Shown here piece after piece: positions 5,870 through 26,392 of a DNA stretch of 64,000 bases. The position numbers and the translations under genes were made by a program. The number at the start of each line of letters is the position of its first letter. The first letter of the stretch is position 1. The notes below the pieces were generated by a model. That model was not told the DNA's origin. It searched no databases and was given only the letters and a program-made list of their open reading frames with translations. The stretch is from Candidatus Woesebacteria bacterium (GTDB lineage: Bacteria > Patescibacteriota > Microgenomatia > UBA8517): NCBI GenBank assembly GCA_020060565.1, contig JAGVAE010000002.1, positions 85,036-149,035 of the forward strand, written 5' to 3'.

Positions 5870-5874
5870 TGGGT

Positions 5875-6461: not shown

Positions 6462-6464
6462 TTG

Positions 6465-6539: not shown

Positions 6540-6564
6540 CTTTCGACTCCGCTCAAGGTAAACT

Positions 6565-7143: not shown

Positions 7144-7170
7144 AAACTGATATAATTGCAGTGCCTAAAC

Positions 7171-7254: not shown

Positions 7255-7258
7255 CACT

Positions 7259-11496: not shown

Positions 11497-11718
11497 CTAA
11501 AGTATGAAAAGGGCAGCCAAAAAAACCAATATTGCAAATGCTAGATGAATATATCCTAAAAATATTATTAAACCCTCCGCCCCCAATGTAAGGGTTGATG
11601 TCATTAGTTTTGTCTGTCTAACAACAACCAGAGCAAATACCAAATATAACCCTAAAAGTATTAGAGATGCGATTTTTATTAAAAGCCAGATCGAAATTCC
11701 AAAAATTGAACTTATCAT
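11497..11718 (-). CDS. Small hypothetical membrane protein.
   Basis: Two hydrophobic helices. Start chosen at MISSIFG to avoid overlap with the upstream gene. Confidence 0.25.
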   Translation of the reverse strand: MISSIFGISIWLLIKIASLILLGLYLVFALVVVRQTKLMTSTLTLGAEGLIIFLGYIHLAFAILVFLAALFIL

Positions 11719-11731: not shown

Positions 11732-12415
11732 TCATTTCTTCTTGACTTGGGGCACCAAGTCATTAATTATCCTTACTACACGATCGGGTTTGGGAACTGC
11801 CAAGAAATCAAACTCAGAAACCTCGGATGCAGTTTGAATAAAAACATTTCCATAATTAAAAACTGTTCTAACAACCCCACCCATGCTGTAAGTAACATCT
11901 TGAATATTATCGAGTGTTGCGTCTGAAACTCTTTTATATATCAAATTATTAAAATCTACGTCTACCACTCTTTCGTTTGTAACAATATAAACATTGAAGT
12001 ACCAATTAAGAAAGTTCTCTAGAGCATAAGCCATTGTAAATAAGTACCAGGCCATTGTAATAACCAATTCAAAACCGTTTGGGATTGTATCAAAAACTCC
12101 AAAAGCCTTGGCAACTGACGGAACAAAAAACATGACAATCGCAATTAAAACCCATTTAACATTCACTATTACATGTTGTCTCAAAAGAAGAACAATTTTT
12201 TCATCATTTGAGCGTGATTCGAAATCAACATTGTTGGGATAATAACTAAATGTAGAAAGCGCTTGATGATTATGGCTTTCAAAAGAGTCCTTTTCTTCCT
12301 TATTCACCGAAATATTCTTTTTGGAATTTGAAACAAATACATCAGGCATTTCAAACTTATTATACCAGGTCGAATCAAAAATTGTGCTATTTTTTCTCGA
12401 TATTGAAGAAGGCAA
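11732..12415 (-). CDS. Bacterial PH-domain (YdbS/YdbT-like, DUF304) membrane protein.
   Basis: Two adjacent TM helices (WVLIAIVMFFVPSVAKAFGVF / ELVITMAWYLFTMAYAL) followed by a soluble beta-rich domain, as in bPH_2 proteins. Confidence 0.45.
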   Translation of the reverse strand: MPSSISRKNSTIFDSTWYNKFEMPDVFVSNSKKNISVNKEEKDSFESHNHQALSTFSYYPNNVDFESRSNDEKIVLLLRQHVIVNVKWVLIAIVMFFVPSVAKAFGVFDTIPNGFELVITMAWYLFTMAYALENFLNWYFNVYIVTNERVVDVDFNNLIYKRVSDATLDNIQDVTYSMGGVVRTVFNYGNVFIQTASEVSEFDFLAVPKPDRVVRIINDLVPQVKKK

Positions 12416-14090
12416 AACCTTTTTGTGGAATCATTAGATATCCGGGTGCGCGTAAATTAAATGCCTGTTTGAATTCAGCTCCTGTTAGCTTAATTGACCC
12501 GTTGACAGTAACTTCATTGGTTGTGCCGTCTCCCTGAGAAACTGAAACACTTGAAACCGAATTTACACCACCCTTTTGCCTAAGTTCCGAATAACTATAA
12601 GGGTTCCCACCCCAACAAGAGGTTGATGTTGAACTTACACGATCGTCCGTTCCACTCTTAAGAACAATTGCAGCATTAACAATATCTGTAAACTCCTCAT
12701 TGTTTAACCAGGGATTCGCTTTTCCACATGTTGCACCACTCGCGGTATAACCCTGTCTATACCAAGCTTTATAAACCCAAGGTGATCCCCCCGCATATTC
12801 ATATGTCTTTTCCAAAAATCCCGATCCGCCACTACCATTTGTTGTGTCCCACCCTGAAGTAGTCAAATACCCGCCGGATGTTGATGAATAATAAGTAACC
12901 ACATCTTCCAAAACCTGTCCGCGTGTTGACTGCACTGCTTGTTTCCATGCATCGGGTGGGTTGTCTGCTTTACTCTTTCTGAAAACTTGACACGCTTCCG
13001 TTACGCAGATTTGCTTTCCCTCCTTTTTGTATCTGTACGCATAACTTCTGGCTGCAATTGCTTGAGCCTTTAGGGCTTCTGGGTGCCAGGAAGACGGCAT
13101 TTCAGCAATCCCCATTAGATAATAACTTTCAAAATCCACATTTCCCACTCCCGCAACATTGATTGTTCCTCCAGTATCTTTGTTTACAGGGTCTTTTCCG
13201 TAGTAGGCTTTTAATATCTGATTGGTATTTTGTCCGCTTTGGGCCCTTCCGCGTGCTCCATACTGACTCATTCCTTTCCTGTGTGTATATCCCCCAAATG
13301 AGAATACAGCGAAAGAGCCAGCAGGGGCTGCCTCCTTAAATCCTTTTATAGAGGCTGTATAATCATCAGCCAAAGCACTGTCTCCGACACTGGCTATAAA
13401 ACTACCGCTTTTAGCATTCAATATTTCCTGTTGTTTGTTACTTAAAACCGCTAGGAAACTTTCTACTTTCCCCACTTCTCCCTCCAAAAACTTTGCATCT
13501 TCTGTAACTTTCTTTTGAAGAGATGCCAAAGAAACTTTATTTTTTTCTAAACTTTCTTTATCTGCCTTAAGTGTAGACAAATCTTCTCCATATTCTTCCA
13601 TTACCTTTCTGTCATCATCAGCTGCCATTTGCTGATATGAAACTTCACGGAATGCGTCCACCGCATTAGACATCAAAAATGGAGTTATTGGATCATACAA
13701 TCTTCTTCTTTTATAATCGTTCAATACCTTTTCATCAAAAATTTCACTGGTGTATGCCAGATCTTCCTCTCTTCCTTCTATTTCCTTCTCAATATTTTTA
13801 AGTTGTGTAGAGATTGAAGTAATTCTTTGATTAAGACTATCTATTTGTTTTTTAAGGTTTGCCAGTTCTGTTTTGTTTTTTTCTTGGGCTGGAGCATAGG
13901 CTGCTGCAATTCTGGGAAGAATTACAGTTATACATTCTTCCATCTCCCCACTACTCAAATCACTAACAGATTTGTTTAAACAATCACTCTCACTAACAGC
14001 CAAAGCTGATTTTGAAAAATAAAAAAAGGAAAATGTGGCAAGTAAAAAAACAATCGTTAAAAATTTAAAATTGAAAATTGAAAATTTCAT
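12387..14090 (-). CDS. SpoIID/LytB-domain protein (peptidoglycan remodelling) with an N-terminal signal peptide and coiled coil.
   Basis: HRKGMSQYGARGRA and YYLMGIAEMPSSWHPEALKAQAIAARSYAY match the SpoIID/LytB signature. Confidence 0.6.
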   Translation of the reverse strand: MKFSIFNFKFLTIVFLLATFSFFYFSKSALAVSESDCLNKSVSDLSSGEMEECITVILPRIAAAYAPAQEKNKTELANLKKQIDSLNQRITSISTQLKNIEKEIEGREEDLAYTSEIFDEKVLNDYKRRRLYDPITPFLMSNAVDAFREVSYQQMAADDDRKVMEEYGEDLSTLKADKESLEKNKVSLASLQKKVTEDAKFLEGEVGKVESFLAVLSNKQQEILNAKSGSFIASVGDSALADDYTASIKGFKEAAPAGSFAVFSFGGYTHRKGMSQYGARGRAQSGQNTNQILKAYYGKDPVNKDTGGTINVAGVGNVDFESYYLMGIAEMPSSWHPEALKAQAIAARSYAYRYKKEGKQICVTEACQVFRKSKADNPPDAWKQAVQSTRGQVLEDVVTYYSSTSGGYLTTSGWDTTNGSGGSGFLEKTYEYAGGSPWVYKAWYRQGYTASGATCGKANPWLNNEEFTDIVNAAIVLKSGTDDRVSSTSTSCWGGNPYSYSELRQKGGVNSVSSVSVSQGDGTTNEVTVNGSIKLTGAEFKQAFNLRAPGYLMIPQKGFAFFNIEKK

Positions 14091-14147
14091 ATTTTTATTA
14101 TACCAAGTGAAAACTAATCTAAGGGGTGATAAAATAACTTAGTTAGT

Positions 14148-14540
14148 ATGAAGAAGTTTATATTTAGTATTATTTTTGTTTCTGCATTTATATTTTTGAA
14201 TACTTTGATTTCGCCAAAGGTCTCTATGGCTGCTGATGTTCATGGGGGCTGTGGAGATACAGAGATTGATACAGCCATTGGCTGTGTTCCTGTATTGGGT
14301 GATGGAACAAGTGATTTTATGACTTTTATTCTTAGGTGGGCAATTGGTGTTGGGGGTGGAATTGCTTTTCTTTTGATTCTTTATGCAGGTTTTATGACAA
14401 TGACTTCAGCAGGTAATCCAGAAAGACTTAAGGCGGGGCAAGAATTATTAACAAGTGCCATCTCTGGTCTGATTCTTTTGATATTGTCCGTATTTGTTCT
14501 AAACTTTATAGGAATCAATATTTTAGGTATATTTACATAA
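14148..14540 (+). CDS. VirB2/TrbC-like propilin candidate, paralog 1; the only one with a classical signal peptide.
   Basis: 130 aa. Signal peptide (…PKVSMA), a Cys pair, then TM1, loop TSAGNPERLKAGQELLTSAISG and TM2. Confidence 0.5.
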   Translation: MKKFIFSIIFVSAFIFLNTLISPKVSMAADVHGGCGDTEIDTAIGCVPVLGDGTSDFMTFILRWAIGVGGGIAFLLILYAGFMTMTSAGNPERLKAGQELLTSAISGLILLILSVFVLNFIGINILGIFT

Positions 14541-14873
14541 ATGAAAATAGCATTAGAGAGTCCTTATAAAGGTATTAGCGTTCCTTCAAGTGGTGGAAAA
14601 ATAAATGTAAACGAAACTGATATTGGAGGTATTATTACTGGAGTTTTGCCATATATCTTTGGTGCAGCTGCAATTTTACTTTTAATTTATTTAGTTACAG
14701 CAGGTCTTTCCATGATGCTTTCTCGGGGAGAACCAAAAACAATGCAGGCAGCACAAGCAAAAATAACCAATGCTTTGATCGGATTTGTTATTGTATTTTT
14801 TGCGTTTTCTTTAGTACTTCTTGTTGGAAATATTCTTGGAGTTAATGTTTTTGAAGACATATTTAAAAAATAA
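14541..14873 (+). CDS. VirB2/TrbC-like propilin candidate, paralog 2.
   Basis: 110 aa. ~40-aa leader, then TM1, loop SRGEPKTMQAAQAKITNALIG and TM2. Abuts paralog 1 (TAAATG). Confidence 0.5.
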   Translation: MKIALESPYKGISVPSSGGKINVNETDIGGIITGVLPYIFGAAAILLLIYLVTAGLSMMLSRGEPKTMQAAQAKITNALIGFVIVFFAFSLVLLVGNILGVNVFEDIFKK

Positions 14874-15193
14874 TGAAAAATCTTGCATTAAATATTAAGG
14901 ATTCTTTTTTTGGTAATCAGGGAGCGTCTTCTTTTCAAACAATTACTGGGGTTTCTGATATTGTTTCTTTATTTCTCAAAATTTCTTTTGTCCTGGCAGG
15001 TTTAATTCTTCTTTTCTATTTTATCTTGGGTGGAATTGGAATGATTGGGAGTGCTGGAAAAAATGATCCAAAAGCGGCTGAACAGGCCAAGCAAACCATA
15101 ACATCGGCTGTTATTGGGTTTGTTGTTGTGTTTGTAGCCTATTGGATAGTAAAATTGATTGGAATATTGTTTAATATTCCAAATATTATTTAA
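14873..15193 (+). CDS. VirB2/TrbC-like propilin candidate, paralog 3.
   Basis: 106 aa. Loop SAGKNDPKAAEQAKQTITSAVIG between two TM helices. ATGA overlap with paralog 2. Confidence 0.5.
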   Translation: MKNLALNIKDSFFGNQGASSFQTITGVSDIVSLFLKISFVLAGLILLFYFILGGIGMIGSAGKNDPKAAEQAKQTITSAVIGFVVVFVAYWIVKLIGILFNIPNII

Positions 15194-15547
15194 ATGCAAA
15201 AACTACTCGCAGATAATGTCTTTGGCACAATTAAAGCACCAGATTCTGCATTTAAGGACAGTGCTACTCCCCAAGCAGCCATTGGAAACTTAATTCAGCT
15301 TGTAATCTGGATTCTTATAATTGGCGCTGGGATCTATGCATTGTTTAATTTGGTTTTGGCTGGCTATTCTTTTATGTCAGCAGGAGATGATAGTAAAAAA
15401 GTTAGTGGAGCCTGGGCTATGATTTATCAAACAATGATCGGCTTGGCTGTTGCTGCAGGATCCTTTGTGCTGGCAGCCATCTTTGGACAGTTGATATTTG
15501 GCAAATGGGATTTTATCCTTAACCCAACAATTCCAACATTACAATAA
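15194..15547 (+). CDS. VirB2/TrbC-like propilin candidate, paralog 4.
   Basis: 117 aa. Loop SAGDDSKKVSGAWAMIYQTMIG between two TM helices. Confidence 0.45.
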   Translation: MQKLLADNVFGTIKAPDSAFKDSATPQAAIGNLIQLVIWILIIGAGIYALFNLVLAGYSFMSAGDDSKKVSGAWAMIYQTMIGLAVAAGSFVLAAIFGQLIFGKWDFILNPTIPTLQ

Positions 15548-15548
15548 A

Positions 15549-15923
15549 ATGAATAATTTACTGACAGATATTAAATTGGCACCAGAGAGTGGTTTTAGGG
15601 GTTTTGGTCAGTTGGGACTTGAAGGTTTAAGTGAAGAAAGTGCGGGTACGACATTCAACACCTTTGTTTCAACTGCCATAGGTGTAATGACCATCATTGC
15701 TTTTGTGTGGTTTGTTTTTACACTTTTTGTTGGGGCTTACGGATTTATGACTGCAGGAGGGGATAAACAGGCTCTCGAGTCTGCAAAGAAAAAAATAACT
15801 ACAGGAATAATAGGTGTCGTTATTGTAATTGCCGCCATTTTCATATTCCAACTTGTGGGGTATATACTTGGAATACCAAATATTCTTAATCCTGGGGAAA
15901 TGATTAGACAAATCAGTCAATAA
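15549..15923 (+). CDS. VirB2/TrbC-like propilin candidate, paralog 5.
   Basis: Start at MNNLLTDIK, 1 nt after the stop of paralog 4. Loop TAGGDKQALESAKKKITTGIIG. Confidence 0.5.
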   Translation: MNNLLTDIKLAPESGFRGFGQLGLEGLSEESAGTTFNTFVSTAIGVMTIIAFVWFVFTLFVGAYGFMTAGGDKQALESAKKKITTGIIGVVIVIAAIFIFQLVGYILGIPNILNPGEMIRQISQ

Positions 15924-15924
15924 T

Positions 15925-16326
15925 ATGTTTATTACAAACCTTCTATTAGCACAGGGCGATATCCCTGAGGGGTGGAATGGCCCAGCAAAAGGATCTGAAA
16001 TAAAAAACCCCGCTTTAGGAAACACCTTAAACGGACTTCTTCAAGAGGGTGGTTCCGCGTTTTTTGGAACCCTAATACCAAATCTTATTGGAATCTGTTA
16101 TGTAATTGGGGTAGTTATCTTTCTTTTTATGCTTATTACAGGTGCTATTCAATGGATAAGCTCCGGTGGAGACAAACAAGCATTAGAGTCAGCAAGGAAT
16201 AAAATATCAAATGCTTTGGTAGGAATTGTAATTTTGTTTGCTGTGTTTGCAATTATAAATCTAATTGAAACGTTTTTTGGTATAAATATTATGACCCTTG
16301 ACATGGGGGCTTTAGTAATTCAATAA
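15925..16326 (+). CDS. VirB2/TrbC-like propilin candidate, paralog 6.
   Basis: 133 aa. Loop SSGGDKQALESARNKISNALVG between two TM helices. Confidence 0.5.
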   Translation: MFITNLLLAQGDIPEGWNGPAKGSEIKNPALGNTLNGLLQEGGSAFFGTLIPNLIGICYVIGVVIFLFMLITGAIQWISSGGDKQALESARNKISNALVGIVILFAVFAIINLIETFFGINIMTLDMGALVIQ

Positions 16327-16336
16327 TATAAATGTA

Positions 16337-16675
16337 ATGAATAATTTGCTTGCGGAAACAATTAATTTAAAGCCACAATCAGGTGATTTTGTGGGAATAT
16401 CTAATTTTACACTCCCCTCAATTATTTCTGCTCTTATAAAAGGAGCTATGGTTATTGCTGCTATTATCTTCTTCTTTATGTTGGTTATTGGAGGAATTAA
16501 ATGGATTGCTTCAGGTGGTGACAAAGCTCAAACAGAAGCAGCCAGGAATCAAATTACTGCAGCTCTTGTGGGTTTGGTAATAGTCTTTGCTGCTTGGGCA
16601 ATAGTTTCTCTTATAGCCACATTCTTTGGAGGGGTTAATATCTTTAATCTTACAATTCCTGAAATTGGTAATTAG
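16337..16675 (+). CDS. VirB2/TrbC-like propilin candidate, paralog 7.
   Basis: 112 aa. MNNLLAETI leader. Loop ASGGDKAQTEAARNQITAALVG. Confidence 0.5.
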   Translation: MNNLLAETINLKPQSGDFVGISNFTLPSIISALIKGAMVIAAIIFFFMLVIGGIKWIASGGDKAQTEAARNQITAALVGLVIVFAAWAIVSLIATFFGGVNIFNLTIPEIGN

Positions 16676-16722
16676 TTATCTTCTTGATCATGTTTATCTT
16701 CTAGATTAGAATTATCTTTAAT

Positions 16723-17007
16723 ATGGGTGATGGTCCTGCTAGGATTTCTGATTTGCAATTAGTTTTTGGGAATGTTGTCAAGATTGCCTTGGCGGCCGCA
16801 GGTGTGGTTCTTTTTGTTTTACTTATTATTGGAGGATTAAAATATATTACTTCAGGTGGGGATCCCAAAGCAGCCGAGAGTGCGCAAAAAACAATTACTT
16901 ATGCTATTGGAGGACTTCTTCTTATACTTGCTTCATTTCTAATCCTGGAGCTAATTAGGACAATTACAGGAGTAGATGTCACCAATTTTATTGTTACCCA
17001 ACCGTAA
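16723..17007 (+). CDS. VirB2/TrbC-like propilin candidate, paralog 8; shortest, minimal leader.
   Basis: 94 aa. Loop TSGGDPKAAESAQKTITYAIGG between two TM helices. Confidence 0.45.
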   Translation: MGDGPARISDLQLVFGNVVKIALAAAGVVLFVLLIIGGLKYITSGGDPKAAESAQKTITYAIGGLLLILASFLILELIRTITGVDVTNFIVTQP

Positions 17008-17011
17008 TTTA

Positions 17012-19501
17012 ATGTTCAAAAAACTTGCCCTCATGTTTTTTTTATTTCTAATATCTTTGGGGGCGTATCTAATTGTTTTATCTCCAACTAAGGCTGCTGA
17101 TGAAAAACCCTTTCCTAAGATTTGGCTTCCTTGTGATGAAGATAGAAATATTGAATTTCATTCCTTAAGACCTTATCAAGCCGCTCCATGTGGAGAAGCC
17201 AATAAAGCTCTCTATTGCAGTAATGACCTAATTTTTAACGAGTCTTTTGACATGGAAGGTAAAAAAGATTGCACTATGAAGTTAAGGGGCCCGGGTGAAA
17301 TAACTTTTACTTGTTATCCAGATCATCATGTTTACCCACACACACTCTATGTAAAACTTGACAATTCAGATTTTCCGATTATGGGTAACACTGAAGATGT
17401 TAAAAACAGTAAAAACTCTTCGGAAACATTGGATGATGCAGCAAAAGTTAATGAATATGTGAGCTGGTATCTAAGCGGTGTTAATACAAGGGCTGAGTAT
17501 GGAACTCCAACTGAAGATCAAGTTGTAAACTATTCAGGGCCAGTTCAAAAACTTTTACCAAGTATTATCGCTGATGCTCAAAGATCTACTGTAATAAAAA
17601 ATGTTCTTGACAATAAATCTACTAACCACAATCAAACAGTAGTGTGTGCAACAAAACCAGTTCAACTTCTTCCCTCCTGGCTAACCAACATTTTCGATCT
17701 TCCTGCTGTGGGAATTGGTACAGCCAAAGCCGTCCCTTGCTATGATGGTGGTGGTTCAATTTATAAGCTTAAAAATTGGGATCAATCTTTTATTGGTGTC
17801 GCAAAGGATCTAATTAAACCCTATCTAGATAAAATACTCTCTGTTAATTATGCCACATCTTTTATTAGTAGTGCCCTTGTTGATAGATGGAATAAAAAAA
17901 TTCCACCCCTTCCTTGGGATGATGGAACAGGAAAACCGTTTGAAACTAGTGATAAATATCAAAAAGCCTACAATGAATGGCGGGGAGATTTATGCGCTTT
18001 CTTACCAAATCCTTTTAGCAGTAAAGAATATTTGGCTTGTGTGAAAATTCCTGGTGTTACCAACAATGAATTTGCAGACCTTTTCCAATATGTTCCCCTT
18101 GCAGAGACTCCAGACAAAGCAGGGTCTGAAAGCATTATTGGGGTTTCTATTGAACCAGATGGAGGAACAAAGGTGAATGTAGTTAACTGGGGCAAAAAAG
18201 TGGATCCACCATTATTTTTTGCTCATACAGAAGAAGTAAAACAACTTTCCGAAACTTTAAATAAAACCTATATGCCCAAAGATGTTCAGAGTGTTCCTGT
18301 TCCCGAGTCTACCGAAAAAAATGTTTGCAGTGTAGTAAATGTGCGTGCAAATGCGGGGGATAATTTATTTCCAGGAGATGAAGATGAACTTCAGCTTCAA
18401 AATGTTGAGTACTACATTACAGAAGCCACCTGTCATGAAGTCTGGACCAGGAGGGAATGGGAAGATGAGTTTGGTAAAAAACATTTTGACGATAACCACA
18501 CTATCGAATGTCCCGCCGAAGTGACAATAACCATAAAAACAAACACAATGACGCCAAGTGCTAATGAAATTTTCTCAACCACAGTTGCCGATTCAATGAG
18601 TACCTTTAGAAAAATTTATCCAAAAGTTGAAGCTGGAGCTCCTGTCAGTTGTATTGCTGACATACCAACTGTTACTAATGTTGACTATGACCCCCTTATT
18701 AATAAAAGACCTGGAAGTCAAAGTCCTAACGAAGGAGCTTTATCTTTTAGGGTTGATAACAAACCATCAGATGGTGGAAATGCAACACCACAACTAACCT
18801 TTCCCCACATAGGAAGTGTCTATGAATACTTTTTAAAAGGAATCCAAACAGCCCTTCGTCCGCAGGGCTATGCAGATCCAAACCCAATAAGTGGAAATTT
18901 ATGTCAAACCACCAGTCAAGCAAATCTGGGAGATATCTGTGCGGTAGCAGATGCTTATGGTATTCCTTGTTGTCAATTAAAAGGTATCGCTGCACTTGAA
19001 ACAGGTAGTGGTGCTGGTGTTGGTAATGGATCGTGTAGTACTAAAAATGGAACATTTTCTTGTTGTAATGGTGGAATGTGTGGACCTTCACAGATTGCTT
19101 GTGGTCAATATGATGCATTTACTGGAAACGACAATATTGATATGTGCGATTCTGCAGGATCTGCAGAACTTTTGGCTCGTGCAATGCTTCTAAAATTGTG
19201 TCAGGCAGATGGAAAATGTAATTCGTATGACTGGAATACGTGGGGAAATTATGTAAAAGAAAATTACAGTGTTGGAGACGGTGACTATACAGCAGCTGCA
19301 TATTTTTACGGACTAGCCAATGACTGCACAGTTACTGCTTGTTCACAATACAGATGGGGAGCTGGAAAAAGTTATTGTGATGCTGTAAAAAGCTACTGTG
19401 AAACTGGTTCCATACTTACTTCCAATACATCTAAACAGTTTTGTGATAAATGTAATGAAGAAATTATAAGGGCTGGCCAAACCCCAATCAATTGTAATTA
19501 A
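17012..19501 (+). CDS. Large secreted protein with a C-terminal Cys-rich domain; a possible divergent lytic-transglycosylase-like region is speculative.
   Basis: Start at MFKKLALMFF…AADEK (signal peptide). ~830 aa with about 40 Cys concentrated in the last 250 aa. GIAALETGSGAG…AAAYFYG faintly recalls the SLT motifs ES…AAYNAG. Confidence 0.45.
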   Translation: MFKKLALMFFLFLISLGAYLIVLSPTKAADEKPFPKIWLPCDEDRNIEFHSLRPYQAAPCGEANKALYCSNDLIFNESFDMEGKKDCTMKLRGPGEITFTCYPDHHVYPHTLYVKLDNSDFPIMGNTEDVKNSKNSSETLDDAAKVNEYVSWYLSGVNTRAEYGTPTEDQVVNYSGPVQKLLPSIIADAQRSTVIKNVLDNKSTNHNQTVVCATKPVQLLPSWLTNIFDLPAVGIGTAKAVPCYDGGGSIYKLKNWDQSFIGVAKDLIKPYLDKILSVNYATSFISSALVDRWNKKIPPLPWDDGTGKPFETSDKYQKAYNEWRGDLCAFLPNPFSSKEYLACVKIPGVTNNEFADLFQYVPLAETPDKAGSESIIGVSIEPDGGTKVNVVNWGKKVDPPLFFAHTEEVKQLSETLNKTYMPKDVQSVPVPESTEKNVCSVVNVRANAGDNLFPGDEDELQLQNVEYYITEATCHEVWTRREWEDEFGKKHFDDNHTIECPAEVTITIKTNTMTPSANEIFSTTVADSMSTFRKIYPKVEAGAPVSCIADIPTVTNVDYDPLINKRPGSQSPNEGALSFRVDNKPSDGGNATPQLTFPHIGSVYEYFLKGIQTALRPQGYADPNPISGNLCQTTSQANLGDICAVADAYGIPCCQLKGIAALETGSGAGVGNGSCSTKNGTFSCCNGGMCGPSQIACGQYDAFTGNDNIDMCDSAGSAELLARAMLLKLCQADGKCNSYDWNTWGNYVKENYSVGDGDYTAAAYFYGLANDCTVTACSQYRWGAGKSYCDAVKSYCETGSILTSNTSKQFCDKCNEEIIRAGQTPINCN

Positions 19502-19545: not shown

Positions 19546-21150
19546 ATGTCTATCCTGCTCAAAAAAGTTCTGTTATCTTTTCTTTCCTTTTTTGTATTAT
19601 TCTTTTCTGTTGCTCCAAATTTTGCAATTGCCAAGGCCCAATCTACAACTTGGTACAATCAAGACTTCAAAACCTGGTTTGGAAAAGTATCGGACGAAGG
19701 TAACCCGCAAGAGATTTTTGGAGAACGCTATACATCTGCTCAAGTTGAATGGGTCATATATGGGGTATTTGCCTTCTTTATAAATCACGTTACTCCTCCA
19801 GGAACCGCAGGTACTTGTATTAATGGTGATATCACGGGTTGTATCGGTGCAATTAGTGCTTATTTCAGTTCAATATCCTATGAAGATAAAACGAACGAGA
19901 GCCTCGCACAACTTGTTTTTGCAGATCGCCCCCTTTCAGGAATTTCATATGTCAAACATACTATACAGAAATTTGGTTCAGTGCCTACTGCTCATGCACA
20001 AAGCCCTGGTTTTGGCTTCTCGGCACTTTCTGGTCCTATTCAGGATATGTGGAATGGTTTTAGAAATATAGCTTTTGGATTGTTTGTTCTTGCAACTGTT
20101 GCTTTTGCTTTTATGATTATGTTTCGAGTTAAAATTTCTCCACAAGTTGTTATTACTGTTCAATCTGCAATTCCAAAAATTGTTATTTCATTGATCCTCG
20201 TTACTTTTTCCTATGCAATCGCAGGTTTTTTAATTGATCTTATGTACTTGGTTATTGGTTTTATCAGTTTGATCATGGCCCCATTAATACCAAATGTATT
20301 ACTGTTAAATTCAGTCAATTACAATGCCACAGATTTATTTAAACTTCTAACGGTAGGCCAGACAATTGGGATTGGAACTGGTGGTTTCAATGGAATTTTA
20401 CTTCTTTTAGGAATGTATCTTACTCCTTTATTTTTAATCCTTCTCGTTTTCGCTGCACTTTTTCTTGCTATTGCATTTATACCAGGTGCTCAAGTGTTCG
20501 GGGTCGTATTAATGTTATTAACTCTAATTATTATGTTGGTTATTGTTGTATTGGCAATGTGGATGTCTATTAAAATAATGTGGGCACTTTTCAAAGCCTT
20601 TGCAAACATCGTCCTTCTTACCATCTTTGCTCCAATACAGCTTGTTGCGGGGGTAATTGTGCCCAATTTTGGCTTTGGTCAGTGGGTAAGAAGTTATTTA
20701 TCACACCTTGCGGTTTTTGTAGTAACGGGTGTTTTGTGGCTACTTTCTTACATTTTTATGTTGCATGCTTGGGCAGGTATTGGCGATGGCTCCTCTTTAA
20801 CCCTTGCTGGCTCAAACGTAAGTCCCTGGCCACCCCTTCTGAATGTTGGTGGTGGAACATTCTTTATTTTTACTGGGGTTAGTTTTGTGCTTTTTACAAT
20901 GATTCCAAAAGCAACCGAACTAGTACAATCACTTCTTGCAGGTAAGCCATTTGCGTACGGAAGTGCAATTGGTGAAGCCTTTGGACCAGTCACAAAAGGT
21001 GTGGGAATAGGAACTGGGTTTGGAGCAACTTACTTGTCAGAGTTGGGTGAAAGTCAGTTAAGATCAGGTAGCGAAGCAGTAAGAAAACAAGGTAAAAGTA
21101 ATTTAACGAAAGGTTCTGCCTTAAAAGTTATGCAGGGGTTTTTTAGATAA
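19546..21150 (+). CDS. VirB6/TrbL-like polytopic membrane protein (PrgH/TcpH-like).
   Basis: Signal peptide, a ~190-aa extracytoplasmic domain, at least 6 TM helices and a Gly-rich C-terminal tail. The topology and its position in the locus fit the VirB6 family. Confidence 0.45.
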   Translation: MSILLKKVLLSFLSFFVLFFSVAPNFAIAKAQSTTWYNQDFKTWFGKVSDEGNPQEIFGERYTSAQVEWVIYGVFAFFINHVTPPGTAGTCINGDITGCIGAISAYFSSISYEDKTNESLAQLVFADRPLSGISYVKHTIQKFGSVPTAHAQSPGFGFSALSGPIQDMWNGFRNIAFGLFVLATVAFAFMIMFRVKISPQVVITVQSAIPKIVISLILVTFSYAIAGFLIDLMYLVIGFISLIMAPLIPNVLLLNSVNYNATDLFKLLTVGQTIGIGTGGFNGILLLLGMYLTPLFLILLVFAALFLAIAFIPGAQVFGVVLMLLTLIIMLVIVVLAMWMSIKIMWALFKAFANIVLLTIFAPIQLVAGVIVPNFGFGQWVRSYLSHLAVFVVTGVLWLLSYIFMLHAWAGIGDGSSLTLAGSNVSPWPPLLNVGGGTFFIFTGVSFVLFTMIPKATELVQSLLAGKPFAYGSAIGEAFGPVTKGVGIGTGFGATYLSELGESQLRSGSEAVRKQGKSNLTKGSALKVMQGFFR

Positions 21151-21166: not shown

Positions 21167-23269
21167 TTAATCTGTAGAATTTACAGCCATTCGAATAAAA
21201 GCACCTATCTGATTATTTAATAAGGCTTTTTCTTCTTCTGTCTCAGATTTGGCAAAGTTAATACTTTTTGATGTATCAAGAATTTTCTTATCAAGATATC
21301 CCACACTCGCCGCCGTTTCAATTATTGCTTGTCGTTCTGTAGAAATTGTAGCCTGAACCGCTGACAAAAAAGCAATCGCCTTCCATTTGTTTTTTTCTTT
21401 TTTAACATATTTCTTTAATAAAGCATCTTCGGCTTCAATTCTCAGTTGATCATTGGGTAACTTGTTACCACCTGTCTGCATCTTGTCCATCAAAGTGTCT
21501 ATTTCAGTCAAATGATCACTAAACCACTTTTCATATTTCCCTTCTGTTATTATCCAATCTCTGCAAACTATATGGATTGATTTTTCAACCCCTTCCCAAT
21601 ACACAGGATCAAGACCATTTTCTCTATTTTTTCCCTTGGTTAATTCACCATTCATTGCCAAGTAGGCTCCCGTATCTTCCCTTAAGGAAAACAGTGCTCT
21701 TATTAAATAAGCTCTATATCCCCAATCTGCCGTATGGTCCTCATCTTTAAATATCTCCCCTAAAGTTTTACCTTCAACAAACAATTCCATTGCTGAACGT
21801 GTTTTACTCTTTGATTCGGGAAAGTTTCTGTCCCTAACGGGAACCGTTCTTAAAAAATCGACCATTATATGCTCTGGTGCAAAATTGGCCCAAGCAAAAG
21901 GACCTTCATAATACGAGTTCTGTCTGTTGTAGACAGTATTATCGCGAGGCCTTGTTAAATCGGTCATTGCATCCGACCATGGATAGTCTTCAGCATTTAC
22001 CTGAATCGCTCTATCACCATCCGTTTTTGTAGCTCTTGTACCATACATCGCAGCCAATCCAAAAAACCTAAATGTTTTTTCTGCAAAATTTACAGCAATT
22101 TGTGACTGCATTTTCATTGATGAATGGTTTTTAAATTTTCCCTCACTCATCAGGTCTTGAACCGCTTCAAGTGTGGCCTTAACACTTCCTCCATTGCTCG
22201 AATCTGCAAACTTATTAAATGCGGGAATCGAATCTAAAACCGCCTTATCTTCAGCAGTTAAACTTTCGTATGATTTACCATATAAATAAGCTGCCTTGTT
22301 GTATTCATTGGGAAGGGTTTTTAATTTTAATTTATATAACCACTCATTCTCCGTTGTTTCATTTACAAAAAGTTTTTTAAACCCCTTTCCATTTCTAAAC
22401 CAATCTAAATCGGTTTTCCATCTGGGATCAGATTGTAATGCCAAATACGTAAAGGCCCTTATACCAATGTCCACTTGTTCAGAAACACTCTTCCATTCTC
22501 TATCACCTTCTATAAAACCAGGCATTTCTCCGTATACTCTTGCAAAAAATTCGGGAGGCATATATTCAGGTAACTCTCCGTAAACCAGCTGAAAAATTTT
22601 CCCTGAAGGAGCAAGTTTTTTATAGAAAGCAAACCATTGATCAAAAAGTTTATCAACATCTTGAATTATCGTTAATGACTGTTCTATCCCTTTTTGTTTT
22701 TCTACCTGTTCCTGGGTTTTTTTTGAACCCCCGCTCAGTTCATTTAAGGCATCGCTTCCACCAGCTGCTCTTAGTGCTATTGATTCTCTAAGAGATTTAG
22801 CTGGCCATTCGTCGTTATAATTTACAATTCTATCCATAATGAAATATGTCCAGTATTTTCTTTCCTGTTCCGTGGGGGCTTTAGTTATTTTTTCTACTAT
22901 TCCTTCACCAAACATTCCAGACATTATCTGGGCTAATATTTCGGGGTTCATCTTAAAGTCACCAGCATCAGGAGATAAATCGACGGGATTAGTAACAGCT
23001 TTTACCGAATCAGGGGCTCCTTCCATATGAGGACCAACTTGTCCCAAGTGGCGCATATAATCTATTGAAGAACCCTGAGGGCTTGGTTGTTCTGGCGATG
23101 TTGGTCCATCAGACATATTCAAATTGTAGCACGGAGTAGGGTAAAACAACAAACCGTCCCATAGCTTGACTTTGTGGCTAAGTGAGTATACACTCGCGGA
23201 CAAGATGGAATTTGACAAAATTAAAACCGCTGTTGCAAATTTTTTTGACCGGAATGAAAAATTAGCCAT
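21167..23269 (-). CDS. Large hypothetical protein (700 aa) encoded antisense within the secretion locus.
   Basis: Long uninterrupted ORF with no recognisable motif. The N-terminus could be a signal peptide, or the start could be later at MSDGPTSP (23116). Confidence 0.4.
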   Translation of the reverse strand: MANFSFRSKKFATAVLILSNSILSASVYSLSHKVKLWDGLLFYPTPCYNLNMSDGPTSPEQPSPQGSSIDYMRHLGQVGPHMEGAPDSVKAVTNPVDLSPDAGDFKMNPEILAQIMSGMFGEGIVEKITKAPTEQERKYWTYFIMDRIVNYNDEWPAKSLRESIALRAAGGSDALNELSGGSKKTQEQVEKQKGIEQSLTIIQDVDKLFDQWFAFYKKLAPSGKIFQLVYGELPEYMPPEFFARVYGEMPGFIEGDREWKSVSEQVDIGIRAFTYLALQSDPRWKTDLDWFRNGKGFKKLFVNETTENEWLYKLKLKTLPNEYNKAAYLYGKSYESLTAEDKAVLDSIPAFNKFADSSNGGSVKATLEAVQDLMSEGKFKNHSSMKMQSQIAVNFAEKTFRFFGLAAMYGTRATKTDGDRAIQVNAEDYPWSDAMTDLTRPRDNTVYNRQNSYYEGPFAWANFAPEHIMVDFLRTVPVRDRNFPESKSKTRSAMELFVEGKTLGEIFKDEDHTADWGYRAYLIRALFSLREDTGAYLAMNGELTKGKNRENGLDPVYWEGVEKSIHIVCRDWIITEGKYEKWFSDHLTEIDTLMDKMQTGGNKLPNDQLRIEAEDALLKKYVKKEKNKWKAIAFLSAVQATISTERQAIIETAASVGYLDKKILDTSKSINFAKSETEEEKALLNNQIGAFIRMAVNSTD

Positions 23270-23885
23270 ACAACAAAGGATGGTGGATCAGACTTTTCAA
23301 AAAAGCCGTTCGAGTGAAGAAAAGCTAGAACTAGATCAATGTCTATACGCAGAGAAAAACATTCCGATTATAAAAGCGAGACTTGACGAGCTTATTAAAA
23401 ATATCAACACTTCTGTTTTCGACAATAAGGGCTCTGTAATACCATGGAAAGTAACTATTGGTAAAAGCCCTCGTTCACATAATGAGGGAGGGAACTCTAT
23501 ATATGAATATGGGGAAGGATACGGTATTGTTGGTGGCCACGATGTTTTTGATGGTTGGTTTCTCACCAGAGAGCAGGACACTGAACTCAAAGTTGGCAGC
23601 CTATTCCAATTACAAATCAAGTTAATTTTTCCACTTACCGAAACAAACACTGCAGGTCAAATTAATAGACACTCCAATAAATATTTTTCCATTTTTGGTT
23701 TTATGTCTGGAGATTTGTTCCACAATCACGAAAGCGGAACTTTTTACAGGAGCTATAGCAGCCTTTCAATTCATAGAAATTTCTACTTAGATAATCCAAA
23801 CGAACTCGTAGCGGAATTTGGTAACAAATTAAAAGAGGAATTGTTAGGACTTAACGATTTTCAGAACCATTCTCCAAAAAATTAA
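23205..23885 (+). CDS. Hypothetical protein.
   Basis: ORF 23166..23885 with internal start MEFDKIK. Would overlap the 5' end of the divergent 700-aa ORF unless that gene starts later. Confidence 0.25.
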   Translation: MEFDKIKTAVANFFDRNEKLAIQQRMVDQTFQKSRSSEEKLELDQCLYAEKNIPIIKARLDELIKNINTSVFDNKGSVIPWKVTIGKSPRSHNEGGNSIYEYGEGYGIVGGHDVFDGWFLTREQDTELKVGSLFQLQIKLIFPLTETNTAGQINRHSNKYFSIFGFMSGDLFHNHESGTFYRSYSSLSIHRNFYLDNPNELVAEFGNKLKEELLGLNDFQNHSPKN

Positions 23886-24633: not shown

Positions 24634-25674
24634 ATGGAACAACACGCAATACCACAAAACGTAAGTTCATATCAATTTAAGTTGGTTGGGGATATGACTC
24701 TTAAGCAGTTTTTTCAACTTGCTGGAGGAATTTTAGTTGGAGTAATTTTTTATTCTGCTCCCTTACTTGGAATTATTAAATGGCCTTTGGCAATTCTTTC
24801 TGTTCTTTTAGGGGTTGGGCTTGCTTTTCTCCCTCTTGAGGAGCGTCCCTTGGAAAAGTGGATTTTTGCTTTTTTTCGTGCAATATATGCTCCCACCCTT
24901 TTTAATTGGAAAAAGGCTTTATCTCCTCCTAAATTTTTTCAGGATGAACCAGCGGGTTCCACTCCCGAACAAGATGCTGCTCTTAAGGGTTATCTGACAA
25001 CAACCAATCAAGCCTCTGGTGCTTCTGCAAATTTGGATAAAGCTGAAATTGGTTTTTTTTCAAAGCTTGCTGGACTTTTAACAGGAACTATCAGTGTTAT
25101 TCCTTCTGCCAAACCTGCTACTCCAACTGAGGCTACTTCTCAAAAGCCAGTTGAGTTGAAAGTACCAGAAAATGCTCCAGTTAGAATTCAAACAGGTGCA
25201 TCACATTTAGTGGTTGAGGAAAAACCAAAGATTGCTACTGTCCAAAACCAAGTCACTGTTAATGCTGTTGCCCCAATTGTAGCGGGAGATGAAATGATTT
25301 CTACAAAACAGGCAATTTTTTCAGTTGATGCAGCCCCACCCAATCCCCCAACTATACCCAATGTGGTTGTGGGACAAGTGGTTGATCAAGACAGAAAAAT
25401 TATTGAGGGGGCAATAATGGAAATACGAGACTCAATGGGAAGACCAATAAGAGCCTTAAGGAGTAATCGTGTGGGACATTTTCTTACAGTCACACAGCTT
25501 GATAATGGACACTACGAAATAATTACAGATAAAGATGGTTATGAGTTTGTTGCGGTTTCTTTTGATGCAAATGGTGCCTTGATTCCTCCAATTTTAGTTC
25601 AAGGAAAAAGATTGGGACCAGTGGTTGAGGATATTCCCGTTGGAATTGTTAAACCAGCCTATTCAATAAATTAA
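24634..25674 (+). CDS. PrgI/VirB3-like membrane protein with a long C-terminal extension.
   Basis: The N-terminus IPQNVSSYQFKLVGDMTLKQFFQLAGGILVGVIFY plus two TM helices matches the PrgI-family pattern, and the gene sits directly upstream of VirB4. Confidence 0.45.
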   Translation: MEQHAIPQNVSSYQFKLVGDMTLKQFFQLAGGILVGVIFYSAPLLGIIKWPLAILSVLLGVGLAFLPLEERPLEKWIFAFFRAIYAPTLFNWKKALSPPKFFQDEPAGSTPEQDAALKGYLTTTNQASGASANLDKAEIGFFSKLAGLLTGTISVIPSAKPATPTEATSQKPVELKVPENAPVRIQTGASHLVVEEKPKIATVQNQVTVNAVAPIVAGDEMISTKQAIFSVDAAPPNPPTIPNVVVGQVVDQDRKIIEGAIMEIRDSMGRPIRALRSNRVGHFLTVTQLDNGHYEIITDKDGYEFVAVSFDANGALIPPILVQGKRLGPVVEDIPVGIVKPAYSIN

Positions 25675-25675
25675 A

Positions 25676-26392
25676 ATGAAACCAAAACTTAACAGTTTAA
25701 ATATTCCCAAGATTCCGTATTTAAGTGTTCCTGACAAACCTATTGTTTCAACCTCTCAGAACCACTTACCAATTGCGGATGTTACCAATGATGTTGTTCT
25801 TTATAAAGATGGTGGGGCTGCTCTTGTTATGGAATCTACATCACTAAACTTTGGCCTTTTAAGTGAAAAGGAGCAAGGAGCCGTCATTGCGGCCTATGCT
25901 GCAATGATTAATTCTCTTTCTTTTTCGATACAAATATTAGTTCGAACTCAAAGGAAAGATATAAGTTCATACATAAGTTATATTGATGAACAAGCTAAAA
26001 AACTAACACATCCCCTTCTTCAAAAATTAATGGCTGAGTATAAAGGATTTATCTTAGATTCTGTTAAAAAGAAAAACGTTTTAGGAAAAAGATTTTTTGT
26101 AATTCTCTATCTTTCCCCACTTGAACTTGGAGTTGGAAAATCATTGGCCGTTGTCACAAAACGAGGAGTTACACTTCCTTTTTCCAAATCCTATGTTATT
26201 AAAAAAACAAAAATAACACTTTATCCAAGACGGGATCATCTTATAAGACAAGCTGGCAGACTTGGAATTAAATTTAGACAACTTACCACCAACGAGCTTA
26301 TTGATCTTTTCTATACCGTCTATAATCCTGAACATCCAGCAGTTAAAAAAGAACCTGAAGTAATATTAGAAAGGAGAGAGTCCAGTGGATAA
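25676..26392 (+). CDS. VirB4/TrbE N-terminal domain encoded as a separate ORF.
   Basis: IADVTNDVVLYKDGGAALVMESTSLNFGLLSEKEQGAVIAAYAAMINSLSFSIQILVRTQRKD…YISYI and RFFVILYLSP follow the CagE_TrbE_VirB N-terminal consensus. The stop overlaps the next ORF by 8 nt. Confidence 0.55.
   Translation: MKPKLNSLNIPKIPYLSVPDKPIVSTSQNHLPIADVTNDVVLYKDGGAALVMESTSLNFGLLSEKEQGAVIAAYAAMINSLSFSIQILVRTQRKDISSYISYIDEQAKKLTHPLLQKLMAEYKGFILDSVKKKNVLGKRFFVILYLSPLELGVGKSLAVVTKRGVTLPFSKSYVIKKTKITLYPRRDHLIRQAGRLGIKFRQLTTNELIDLFYTVYNPEHPAVKKEPEVILERRESSG

Follow-up and report, generated by a model that had tools for sequence, protein, structure and literature searches.

The chromosomal type IV secretion system (T4SS) locus of this Candidatus Woesebacteria genome (Microgenomatia, Patescibacteria) is origin-proximal and combines a tandem array of small genes with PrgI/VirB3-like, TrsD-like and VirB4 genes, after which dnaN and dnaA follow. 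Within the window, the whole 64,000-nucleotide (64-kb) stretch of DNA analysed, the initial annotation had described eight abutting same-strand genes at 14148–17007, and all eight open reading frames were indeed located there on the plus strand. They are designated P1 to P8:

14148..14540, plus strand: P1, 130 aa, three hydrophobic segments; PF18895 28.6 bits, gathering threshold 26.6
14541..14873, plus strand: P2, 110 aa, two-helix pilin-like protein; PF18895 32.1 bits, NF045849 (Mbov_0395 pilin-like) 31.6 bits against a cutoff of 40
14873..15193, plus strand: P3, 106 aa, two-helix pilin-like protein; PF18895 39.2 bits, orthologue matrix
15194..15547, plus strand: P4, 117 aa, divergent paralogue with loop SAGDDSKKVSGAWAMIYQ; profile comparison only
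15549..15923, plus strand: P5, 124 aa with ATG 15549 as start; PF18895 30.6 bits, PF04956 TrbC weak at 13.9 bits (E 0.066)
15925..16326, plus strand: P6, 133 aa; PF18895 25.6 bits, gathering threshold 26.6
16337..16675, plus strand: P7, 112 aa; PF18895 43.4 bits, the top score of the eight
16723..17007, plus strand: P8, 94 aa, shortest N-tail of the paralogues; PF18895 34.2 bits, orthologue matrix

Stop and start codons abut as TAAATG at P1/P2 and P3/P4, overlap by 1 nt as TAATG at P2/P3, and are separated by 1 nt at both P4/P5 and P5/P6, by 10 nt at P6/P7 and by 47 nt at P7/P8. The length range first given, 94–141 aa, is right at its lower end; its upper end would need P5 to start at TTG 15498 and so to overlap P4. 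In the NCBI and JGI gene calls, P5 starts at ATG 15549 (124 aa) and all eight genes are labelled “hypothetical protein.”

A shared architecture was correctly recognized: in each of the eight, a variable N-terminal tail (N-tail) precedes two helices joined by a conserved loop. By hydropathy, every paralogue has two long hydrophobic segments, with an extra N-terminal segment resembling a signal peptide in P1 only, and AlphaFold2 models P7 as a helical hairpin (residues 26–58 and 63–96) with pLDDT above 90 across the hairpin. Local identity among the paralogues spans 22–53% (mean 34%), P6 and P7 being the closest pair at 53%. The proposed loop motif, S-x-G-G-D-(K/P)...E-x-A-(K/R)-x-x-I-T, describes P5–P8 well, P1–P3 loosely and P4 poorly. 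Leaders and loop had both been thought to have diverged; the N-tails are variable, but the loop is where the paralogues are most alike, and it is near-invariant within each orthologue set. The loops carry a net positive and the N-tails a net negative charge, a bias that is weak, most so in P1, P4 and P7.

P1 alone has a signal peptide, as originally remarked: hydropathy identifies an N-terminal Sec-type sequence, MKKFIFSIIFVSAFIFLNTLISPKVSMA. Its Cys pair (C35 and C46) is equally real, and its orthologues keep it as C..TAIGC. P1 is laid out as a signal peptide, a short extracytoplasmic segment bearing the Cys pair, and TM1–loop–TM2. It is also the position that duplicates, some genomes having extra copies and N-domains of up to 558 aa. 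The VirB2/TrbC layout with a long leader, ascribed at first to the entire array, applies to P1; the leaders of P2–P8 lack a hydrophobic core, which leaves these proteins with two hydrophobic segments instead of three.

That the eight belong to a T4SS pilin family is borne out by PF18895 (T4SS_pilin), whose gathering threshold is passed by six of them while P6 falls short by 1 bit, and by a locus that includes the PrgI/VirB3-like, TrsD-like and VirB4 genes. Among their orthologues and paralogues, 130 of 144 match PF18895 at E ≤ 0.01, more than chance would explain. P4 gave no PF18895 match; against a profile of P7 orthologues alone, hhalign aligned it from residue 1 with a probability of 90% (E 1.5e-6). 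Membership in TrbC/VirB2 (PF04956) did not hold up, the best score in the window being 13.9 bits versus a cutoff of 27.9, and hhalign against eight real VirB2/TrbC proteins returned a probability of 10.9%. Judged from sequence, the eight genes encode pilin-like membrane proteins of a Patescibacteria chromosomal T4SS. Such proteins are termed VirB2-like in the literature (PMC12102498, PMC12857230, PMC10633639); direct homology with classical VirB2/TrbC is not established by these profile comparisons.

The array is flanked by the following genes:

12387..14090, minus strand: SpoIID-domain secreted protein, 567 aa, with signal peptide, divergent from the array; PF08486 SpoIID, E 1e-19
17012..19501, plus strand: B829, 829 aa, secreted, 32 Cys; begins 4 nt past the P8 stop, conserved partner of the array
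19546..21150, plus strand: C534, 534 aa, polytopic membrane protein by hydropathy, with signal peptide, a soluble segment of ~140 aa and ~6–8 TM segments
21167..23269, minus strand: D700, 700 aa, between C534 and the PrgI-like gene; position conserved, evolves very fast
24634..25674, plus strand: PrgI family (VirB3-like) membrane protein, 346 aa, downstream in related loci too; PF12666 PrgI 29.3 bits, gathering threshold 27
25676..26392, plus strand: E238, 238 aa, TrsD/TraD-like; NF041427 TrsD (E 3.8e-6) and NF045975 N-terminal region, both sub-cutoff
26385..28229, plus strand: VirB4-like T4SS ATPase, 614 aa; NF045971 (VirB4-like, CD1110 family) 373 bits, cutoff 325; PF19044 TraG P-loop, E 5e-29
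28232..30973, plus strand: F913, 913 aa, directly after VirB4, ~3 central TM segments by hydropathy

The SpoIID-domain gene sits directly upstream of P1 in essentially all complete loci, and its product is a candidate peptidoglycan-remodelling partner. B829 combines a large N-terminal domain with an SLT-like motif at its C-terminus. C534, found downstream of the array in nearly every locus, is fast evolving (median identity 36%) and had no matches in Pfam or NCBIfam; its position and topology would make it a candidate VirB6 analogue. Family searches likewise gave no match for D700, which was found at E ≤ 1e-5 in two loci only and is 22% identical to its positional equivalent in the closest relative (L005), or for F913, a possible T4SS membrane component. 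In long VirB4 proteins the counterpart of E238 is the N-terminal region, and E238 orthologues have PF26593 (TraC-like). No T4CP-like gene was found within the 64-kb window; such a gene is present in loci L001, L002 and L034, lying between P7 and P8 in the first two.

The related loci are labelled Candidatus Woesebacteria or Microgenomates, and the synteny of the array with the VirB4, PrgI and TrsD genes is strict over ~80 genomes. Each of the eight has 1:1 orthologues, in fixed order, over dozens of related species. Exactly P1 to P8 in order are present in 54 of 85 loci, most of the others being truncated contigs. A survey of relatives, suggested at the outset as a search for copy-number variation, found exactly eight genes in 49 of 56 complete arrays, extra genes being mostly P1-type. 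In matrices of the window against L001 and L004, positional orthologues scored ~2–5 times the best non-orthologue for every paralogue, and each paralogue's orthologue set has its own conserved loop signature. The eightfold expansion is not the novelty it had seemed, since arrays of 2–11 such genes are already published for Microgenomatia and Saccharimonadia; what is added to a known kind of array is the fixed order and 1:1 orthology of the eight, together with a single probable main subunit among them.

The positions evolve at different rates. Median pairwise identity is 70% for VirB4, 64–67% for P7 and 44–59% for the other paralogues, with P4 the second most conserved paralogue at 56–59%. Compared with L005, P4, P7 and P8 are 95–98% identical to their orthologues, P6 58% and P5 48–49%. 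At such swapped positions the divergent alleles are saturated in dS, and other close pairs show swaps at P1 and P2, which indicates that some positions tolerate or favour variation. Across the paralogues dN/dS (window versus L005) is 0.04–0.30, indicative of purifying selection.

P7 has a dN/dS of 0.04 in that comparison, and its TM1–loop–TM2 is near-invariant among 16 orthologues; by pairwise identity, it evolves about as slowly as VirB4. It is preceded by a promoter-like element:

16298..16327, plus strand: sigma-70-like P7 promoter, TTGACA, 18 nt, AATAAT; 11 of 12 positions, the region's best promoter-like match

This element lies in the last codons of P6. With 9 nt between its end and the P7 ATG, the mRNA is predicted to have no leader or a very short one. 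The element is the sole exact match to TTGACA-N17-19-ATAAT in the 64-kb window. TTGACA occurs at the P6/P7 junction in 47 of 52 non-redundant loci and at any other junction in 0–6 of 52; 11 loci with a differing P6 C-terminus retain the promoter in the intergenic spacer. P7 is a probable candidate for the major or core subunit. A strong promoter at this site would also drive P8, B829 and C534, and so does not by itself single out P7.

The part of a recent survey considered here reports 441 arrays of 2–11 pilins in Patescibacteria (Quinonero-Coronel et al. 2025, PMC12102498). As that part describes them, these arrays resemble the present one: tandem PF18895/PF04956-type genes, 2–11 per array, Microgenomatia-enriched, near virB4 and dnaA, and with no relaxase nearby. 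Within-array identity has a mean of 25% and a maximum of 54% there, and a local mean of 34% and a maximum of 53% here. The same portion puts its emphasis on variability and raises the idea of versatility towards host strains, whereas across Woesebacteria the array described here keeps the same eight genes in constant order, each with its 1:1 orthologues. A fixed set with one slow, separately promoted member points to co-assembly over interchangeability. Bartonella and Anaplasma likewise have several tandem VirB2 paralogues in one T4SS locus, the virB2/trwL genes (cited in that portion of PMC12102498); those copies are read as antigenic-variation or host-range variants, whereas the present array is fixed in copy number, order and orthology. 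In Ca. Southlakia epibionticum ML1, Tn-seq showed a series of pilin genes within the T4SS cluster to be essential (Wang et al. 2023, PMC10633639; reviewed in PMC12857230), and recognisable coupling and relaxase proteins are absent (PMC10633639). The two systems share a chromosomal monoderm-type T4SS, several divergent VirB2-like pilins in the cluster and no recognisable coupling or relaxase proteins. They differ in that S. epibionticum (Saccharimonadia) has six pilins of experimentally established essentiality, while the eight pilins of the Microgenomatia locus are known from sequence alone.

Classical VirB2, TrbC and TraA (PF04956 and relatives) are similarly small proteins of T4SS loci with two long hydrophobic helices and a short polar loop, and the signal peptide plus two helices of P1 reproduce their layout. 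In contrast to them, P2–P8 have no hydrophobic leader, the loop is ~7 residues longer, similarity is below significance, the host is a monoderm, and there are eight distinct genes, not one. Seven of the eight paralogues match the Mbov_0395 family of mycoplasma ICEs (NF045849) over its full length, at E 1e-7 to 4e-4 and 20–32 bits against a cutoff of 40. This too is a small two-helix protein of a monoderm T4SS, and it is encoded near Mbov_0397, a long VirB4 that E238 matches in the N-terminal part. The mycoplasma elements are conjugative, and the Mbov_0395 family occurs in them as a single copy. Type IV pili and type II secretion pseudopili are built from one abundant conserved subunit and a fixed set of low-abundance, non-interchangeable paralogues, the major subunit often being under its own promoter. 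They offer a functional analogy only, belonging to an unrelated family with an unrelated assembly machine; the prepilin peptidase motif is absent here.

We read the eight as anciently duplicated, individually conserved VirB2-like pilins that would act as non-interchangeable subunits of a single pilus-like T4SS filament or conduit, and give this reading roughly even credence. A fixed one-for-one set favours such subunits over a within-genome variant reservoir, and the heteropolymeric filament or conduit raised in the initial annotation fits the fixed 1:1 orthology. The antigenic or functional variant reservoir raised beside it is contradicted by eight ordered 1:1 orthologues in 49 of 56 complete arrays. 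In that alternative the paralogues would be functionally equivalent and used singly or in shifting combinations, to escape recognition or to match different host strains; this has been proposed for Bartonella and Anaplasma VirB2 paralogues, and the part of PMC12102498 considered suggests it for Patescibacteria. Low within-array identity (mean 34%), variable N-tails and swaps of divergent alleles at single positions between close relatives (P5 and P6; elsewhere P1 and P2) would suit it. However, the constant copy number comes from species-level genomes, and an invariant order with a separate orthologue and loop signature per position is unlike a gene family with turnover. Reading the region revealed neither pseudogene or cassette copies nor repeats able to drive switching, and the dN/dS values indicate purifying selection; we consider this explanation improbable. 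That the eight are unrelated small membrane proteins (holin-like, transporter fragments) with merely pilin-like hydropathy is disfavoured and hard to credit. A two-helix hairpin is admittedly generic: fold searches return generic hairpins only, spurious sub-threshold matches extend to many membrane families, and annotations vary, some P7 homologues being named “TRAP-type transporter small subunit.” Yet the matches to PF18895 are specific and exceed its threshold, a PHROGs search gave no holin families, the VirB4/PrgI/TrsD synteny is strict, and the genes around the locus are housekeeping genes, phage context being absent.

A weightier alternative, though still an unlikely one in our estimate, keeps the eight two-helix proteins inside membrane and wall as a hetero-oligomeric ring, stalk or channel that never forms an extracellular pilus. 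Monoderm T4SSs, conjugative ones included, are generally described without pili (PMC10633639, PMC12857230), and the VirB4 here is of the monoderm CD1110 type; a pilus-like conduit has also been proposed (PMC12857230). No pilus built of these proteins has been observed in any Patescibacterium, and a preprint surveying filament structures of another CPR bacterium identified Ig-like Pam pilins, with the T4SS unmentioned (10.64898/2026.03.03.709456). The sub-threshold likeness to NF045849, a “pilin-like conjugal transfer protein” of ICEs from wall-less mycoplasmas, agrees with a membrane complex, and a fixed stoichiometric set of eight distinct subunits is no less fitting for a defined complex than for a filament. 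Against this, P1 orthologue N-domains of up to ~550 aa and P1 duplication look surface-exposed and host-facing, variable N-tails beside conserved helices and loop fit a polymer with exposed termini, and a highly conserved P7 with a separate promoter suggests one subunit in large excess, as in a filament.

If the eight do form one pilus-like filament or conduit, P7 may be its major or core subunit, having its own strong promoter, a probably leaderless mRNA and a rate as low as that of the VirB4 ATPase. P2–P6 and P8 would be minor or adaptor subunits. Both N-tail and C-tail would lie outside and the slightly basic conserved loop in the cytoplasm, as in VirB2 and TraA; export of the 20–45-residue N-tails of P2–P8 is an assumption, since these have no signal peptide. 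The VirB4 motor, with its PrgI/VirB3-like, TrsD-like and polytopic partners, would draw the subunits out of the membrane and polymerise them, leaving the variable N-tails at the filament surface and the conserved loop facing the lumen. By analogy with Southlakia epibionticum, the structure may serve an epibiotic life style through exchange with the host cell, not conjugation. P1, with the sole signal peptide and a variable, sometimes very large extracytoplasmic N-domain, could be a specialised subunit, perhaps at the tip or in adhesion.

The eight genes of the array are clearly paralogues of one another on the evidence of their sequences, with local identities between paralogues of 22–53% (mean 34%) and global identities to P1 of 15–26%. 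They lie head to tail on one strand, as follows.

14148–14540, + strand, pilin-like gene P1
14541–14873, + strand, pilin-like gene P2
14873–15193, + strand, pilin-like gene P3
15194–15547, + strand, pilin-like gene P4
15549–15923, + strand, pilin-like gene P5
15925–16326, + strand, pilin-like gene P6
16337–16675, + strand, pilin-like gene P7
16723–17007, + strand, pilin-like gene P8

The junctions, in order from P1 to P8, are a TAAATG, a 1-nt overlap, a second TAAATG, and gaps of 1, 1, 10 and 47 nt. Public gene calls name all eight products "hypothetical protein" and, for the same sequence, start P5 at the ATG at 15549, giving 124 residues. The initial annotation was right in describing eight consecutive same-strand paralogues with two transmembrane (TM) segments, and wrong in assigning P5 141 residues, a length that requires an upstream TTG overlapping P4. 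By hydropathy, all eight products contain a polar loop flanked by two long hydrophobic segments; P1 alone has, in addition, a signal-peptide-like segment at its N-terminus, as well as a conserved Cys pair. The AlphaFold2 model of P7 is a helical hairpin, composed of helices 26–58 and 63–96, with pLDDT above 90 across the hairpin.

The array proteins are members of PF18895 (Pfam T4SS_pilin, "Type IV secretion system pilin"); they earn the label "VirB2-like" through their architecture, their context and structure-based annotation by other groups. Whole-protein HMM scores place six of them above the PF18895 gathering threshold of 26.6 bits (P1 28.6, P2 32.1, P3 39.2, P5 30.6, P7 43.4 and P8 34.2 bits), while P6, at 25.6 bits, falls about 1 bit under it. 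P4, the most divergent paralogue, has no PF18895 match in the HMM scan; against a profile of P7 orthologues, it yields an hhalign probability of 90% (E = 1.5e-6). A match to PF18895 at E ≤ 0.01 is found for 130 of the 144 paralogues and orthologues drawn from 18 genomes. Seven of the eight paralogues also match, in every case below threshold, the NCBIfam model NF045849, which describes a pilin-like protein of conjugal transfer in mycoplasma ICEs.

The earlier reading of these genes as VirB2/TrbC propilins holds for a T4SS pilin family (PF18895) in a T4SS context, and is so far unsupported for the classical PF04956 (TrbC/VirB2) family. With a gathering threshold of 27.9 bits, PF04956 has its sole match in the window at P5 (13.9 bits, E = 0.066); among the 144 paralogues and orthologues, four reach E ≤ 0.01, the best at 2e-4, and none passes the threshold. 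An hhalign comparison of the 144-sequence family alignment with eight annotated plasmid VirB2/TrbC proteins gave a probability of 10.9% (P = 0.0028), in an alignment that is colinear over the helix–loop–helix and in which the array-family loop is seven residues longer; a P7-centred profile against the same eight proteins gave 0.9%. PDB sequence searches with the paralogue profiles and the P7-orthologue profile returned nothing relevant, fold searches are unable to discriminate a two-helix hairpin, and P7 had no tblastn match among 72,556 plasmids. Classical propilins bear a hydrophobic leader, whereas P2–P8 lack one, their N-tails of ~10–45 residues being hydrophilic by hydropathy. The classical propilin layout, in which two helices follow a cleavable signal or leader that has a hydrophobic core, is thus matched by P1, with its third, N-terminal hydrophobic segment, and not by P2–P8. 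A holin or phage reading is rejected, no holin families having come up in PHROGs, and the Pam pilus (10.64898/2026.03.03.709456) is Ig-like and unrelated.

The context is that of a secretion system. PrgI (PF12666, VirB3-like), a TrsD-like gene and VirB4 lie 7.6–11 kb downstream of the array on the same strand, a linkage that is syntenic in related genomes, and the VirB4 ATPase is of the monoderm CD1110 type (NF045971, 373 bits, cutoff 325). Beyond it stand dnaN and dnaA, at the positions below.

26385, start of virB4
31575, dnaN
32898, dnaA

The remaining genes of the window are housekeeping genes, among them tRNAs, tmRNA, LeuRS, GroEL and YidC. No T4CP-like gene occurs within the 64-kb window, and Pfam scans of its large ORFs found no relaxase near the array. 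From the T4SS genes, dnaN and dnaA, the housekeeping surroundings and the related loci, it follows that this T4SS is chromosomal, lies close to the origin and belongs to a Woesebacteria (Microgenomatia) bacterium.

Such an array is an already known kind, and would not surprise a specialist. Patescibacteria, whose members account for a sizeable part of bacterial diversity and live attached to other microorganisms, have yielded 441 arrays of 2–11 pilin genes in 383 assemblies, found with PF18895 and PF04956, with a mean within-array identity of 25% and a maximum of 54% (Quinonero-Coronel et al., 2025, PMC12102498). In every descriptive respect, the present array agrees with the published ones: at least two pilin-profile genes in tandem or one gene apart (here eight in tandem), low identity, and a chromosomal T4SS near virB4, often also near dnaA, without a relaxase (PMC12102498). 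A 2025 review speculated on a pilus-like conduit (PMC12857230), and in the single species examined experimentally, epibiotic growth required the chromosomal T4SS, its pilin series included (Wang et al., PMC10633639). The array thus adds no new kind of system. What the comparison across genomes adds, in concrete and testable form, is a fixed eight-member orthology, a promoter for P7 and a reading in terms of major and minor subunits; it sharpens the question of what the Patescibacteria T4SS builds and transports.

A scan of species-representative genomes with the P7 profile recovered 80 loci. Gene order was surveyed in 85 fetched loci, and copy number, as the initial annotation had called for, in the 56 non-redundant loci that retain both flanking genes. 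P1 to P8 occur once each and in order in 54 of the 85; of the rest, most are truncated contigs or carry a divergent P2 or P6 that best matches a neighbouring paralogue. Complete arrays hold eight pilin genes in 49 of 56 cases, seven in two, nine in three, and ten and eleven in one each, the surplus genes of these 56 loci being mostly P1-type copies. Between the window and two related genomes, the positional counterpart scores ~2–5 times the best non-orthologue, with diagonal identities of 51–81%. The flanks are equally fixed. Upstream stand the conserved gene G611, a DUF5657 mini-protein, the conserved gene H227 and a secreted SpoIID-domain protein; the genes B829, C534 and D700 stand downstream, followed by PrgI-like, TrsD-like and VirB4. 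In the window, the upstream block comprises G611, a 73-aa mini-ORF, H227 and SpoIID; the mini-ORF (11497–11718, − strand, two TM), between H227 and G611, has the position and length of the PF18901 (DUF5657) gene of relatives. ORFs were catalogued from 50 aa upwards over 12000–19500 and from 100 aa over the whole window, limits under which this mini-ORF does not appear. Each paralogue has its own conserved signature, and among orthologues the N-tails are variable and the helix–loop–helix core is strongly conserved; the loop lies within that core, and its description as diverged was therefore wrong.

Within this fixed set, P7 and P1 stand apart. P7 has the best PF18895 score in the array, a median pairwise identity across genomes of 64–67% (compared to 70% for VirB4 and 44–59% for the other paralogues) and a dN/dS of 0.04 against L005, the closest relative of the window. 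It is also preceded by the best promoter-like site in the region.

16298–16327, + strand, predicted sigma-70-type promoter for P7, near-consensus TTGACA-N18-AATAAT

This site, the sole exact TTGACA-N17–19-ATAAT in the 64-kb window, is embedded in the end of P6 (final codons and stop codon), and 9 nt separate it from the P7 ATG. A TTGACA is present at the P6/P7 junction (100-nt window) in 47 of 52 loci, compared to 0–6 of 52 at each of the other junctions and a background of 0.055 per 100 nt. It lies inside the last P6 codons in 36 loci and in the spacer in 11 loci with a different P6 C-terminus; since the element moves to the spacer where the P6 C-terminus differs, its conservation is at the DNA level. 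Across loci the −10 element ends 7–15 nt before the P7 ATG, a proximity that predicts a leaderless P7 transcript or one with a very short leader. A scan for intrinsic terminators inside the array found nothing beyond chance. The P1 position, for its part, is the one place where array copy number changes. The extracytoplasmic N-domain of P1 reaches up to several hundred residues in other genomes, and in certain genomes (L043, L049, L064, L068, L070 and L083) two or three P1-type genes are present, whose N-terminal extracytoplasmic domains span 285–558 aa.

Comparison of the window with L005 reveals a mosaic. P4, P7, P8, the PrgI-like gene and the TrsD-like gene (E238) are 94–98% identical, with dS of 0.45–0.68 for the four scored (P7, P8, PrgI-like and E238), while P5 (48–49%), P6 (58–59%), B829 (70%), C534 (~40%) and D700 (22%) are far more divergent, with dS of 1.4–2.4. 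The divergent genes fall into two segments.

15549–16326, segment divergent from L005, P5–P6
17012–23269, segment divergent from L005, B829–C534–D700

Other close pairs display the same pattern at P1, P2, SpoIID or C534. In the few pairs concerned, the pattern resembles replacement of alleles by recombination at certain positions, and such allele exchange at the population level suggests that host- or phage-facing diversification shapes some components.

That eight orthologous pilins recur as a fixed set points to a single composite structure, not to a stock of alternative variants. Co-assembly, with one major subunit and specialised minor ones in the same structure, best accounts for a set that is fixed and non-redundant, in which P7 is highly conserved and separately promoted and P1 carries a variable exposed domain. 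Because P1 is a family member with a predicted cleavable signal peptide, its first helix would have to enter the membrane from outside; by homology, the other paralogues should then be N-out, loop-in and C-out, with which an excess of K/R in the loops relative to the N-tails weakly agrees. VirB2 and TraA are oriented in the membrane in the same way. In a VirB2-type polymer, the variable N-tails would lie outside and the conserved loop would face the lumen, and VirB4 would drive a pilus-like filament or conduit. This is our preferred reading: that the set builds such a VirB4-driven filament or conduit, and that it serves host interaction rather than conjugation, seems to us about as likely as not. 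More tentative, and possible rather than probable, is the full proposal that the eight proteins co-assemble, in a monoderm, into a VirB2-type filament or conduit that is obligately heteromeric and would be the first such known, with P7 as the major subunit under its own leaderless-type promoter, P1 as a tip or adhesin with a variable extracellular domain, and six fixed minor subunits. If true, it would mirror, within a T4SS that Patescibacteria use to tap host cells, the division of type IV pili into major and minor pilins.

The main rival, a hetero-oligomer embedded in membrane and wall that forms no filament, we consider rather unlikely. The variant reservoir envisaged in the initial annotation, in which interchangeable copies within one genome supply diversity, gains something from the apparent exchange of alleles at individual positions among close relatives, but is disfavoured by the eight-gene complement, fixed order and one-to-one orthology, which leave it distinctly improbable. 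In antigenic or host-range paralogue families of the Bartonella/Anaplasma type, copy number and identity vary between related genomes and copies are interchangeable; such a pattern was not found here, yet single positions appear to exchange alleles. The comparison nominates P7 as major subunit, P1 as exposed specialised subunit, and P5 and P6 as exchangeable positions.

Three neighbours of the array may contribute further parts. The ATG of B829 lies at 17012, 4 nt past the P8 stop, and its product, which has no Pfam domain, is secreted, well conserved (347 homologues) and contains 32 Cys. Its poorly modelled, Cys-rich C-terminal region holds an SLT-like motif, VADAYGIPCCQLKGIAALETGSG (residues ~630–700, window ~18900–19100), and the two best PDB matches of the family profile, both MltC lytic transglycosylases, align with it at their catalytic Glu, at non-significant E values of 0.66–0.81; a VirB1-like activity is possible from these sequence features. 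C534 (19546–21150, + strand), a polytopic membrane protein, is conserved yet evolves fast; it combines a signal peptide with ~140 soluble residues and ~6–8 TM segments, has no family match and could be the missing VirB6 analogue, VirB6 being called "scarce" in Microgenomatia (PMC12102498). The SpoIID-domain protein (12387–14090, − strand), secreted, coiled-coil and divergently transcribed from P1, occupies the same position in essentially every complete related locus, and could be a peptidoglycan-remodelling partner of the T4SS.

Several smaller features accompany the locus. VirB4 is seemingly split: the 238-aa E238 (25676–26392, + strand) matches the N-terminal region of the long mycoplasma-type VirB4, and the E238 gene runs 8 nt into the gene for the 614-aa VirB4 ATPase (26385–28229, + strand). 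A T4CP-like gene of 705–711 aa (DUF8128 / TrwB_AAD_bind / TraG-D_C) is present in L001 (10392–12527, − strand), L002 (8214–10349, − strand) and L034, situated between P7 and P8 on the opposite strand in L001 and L002, and is absent from the other loci within ±10 kb. Many related MAG records, including L008 and L010–L013, are titled "uncultured Gammaproteobacteria bacterium" despite Woesebacteria gene content and synteny; the titles are unreliable. Between D700 and the PrgI-like gene lies a 165-aa fragment with an AbiEii toxin domain (type IV toxin–antitoxin nucleotidyltransferase; 23844–24341, − strand), at whose position L005 has an unrelated-looking 252-aa gene. Finally, a large serine recombinase (3734–5305, + strand) adjoins four tRNA-Ser and one tRNA-Arg (5275–7343), and together these may mark the edge of an integrated element.
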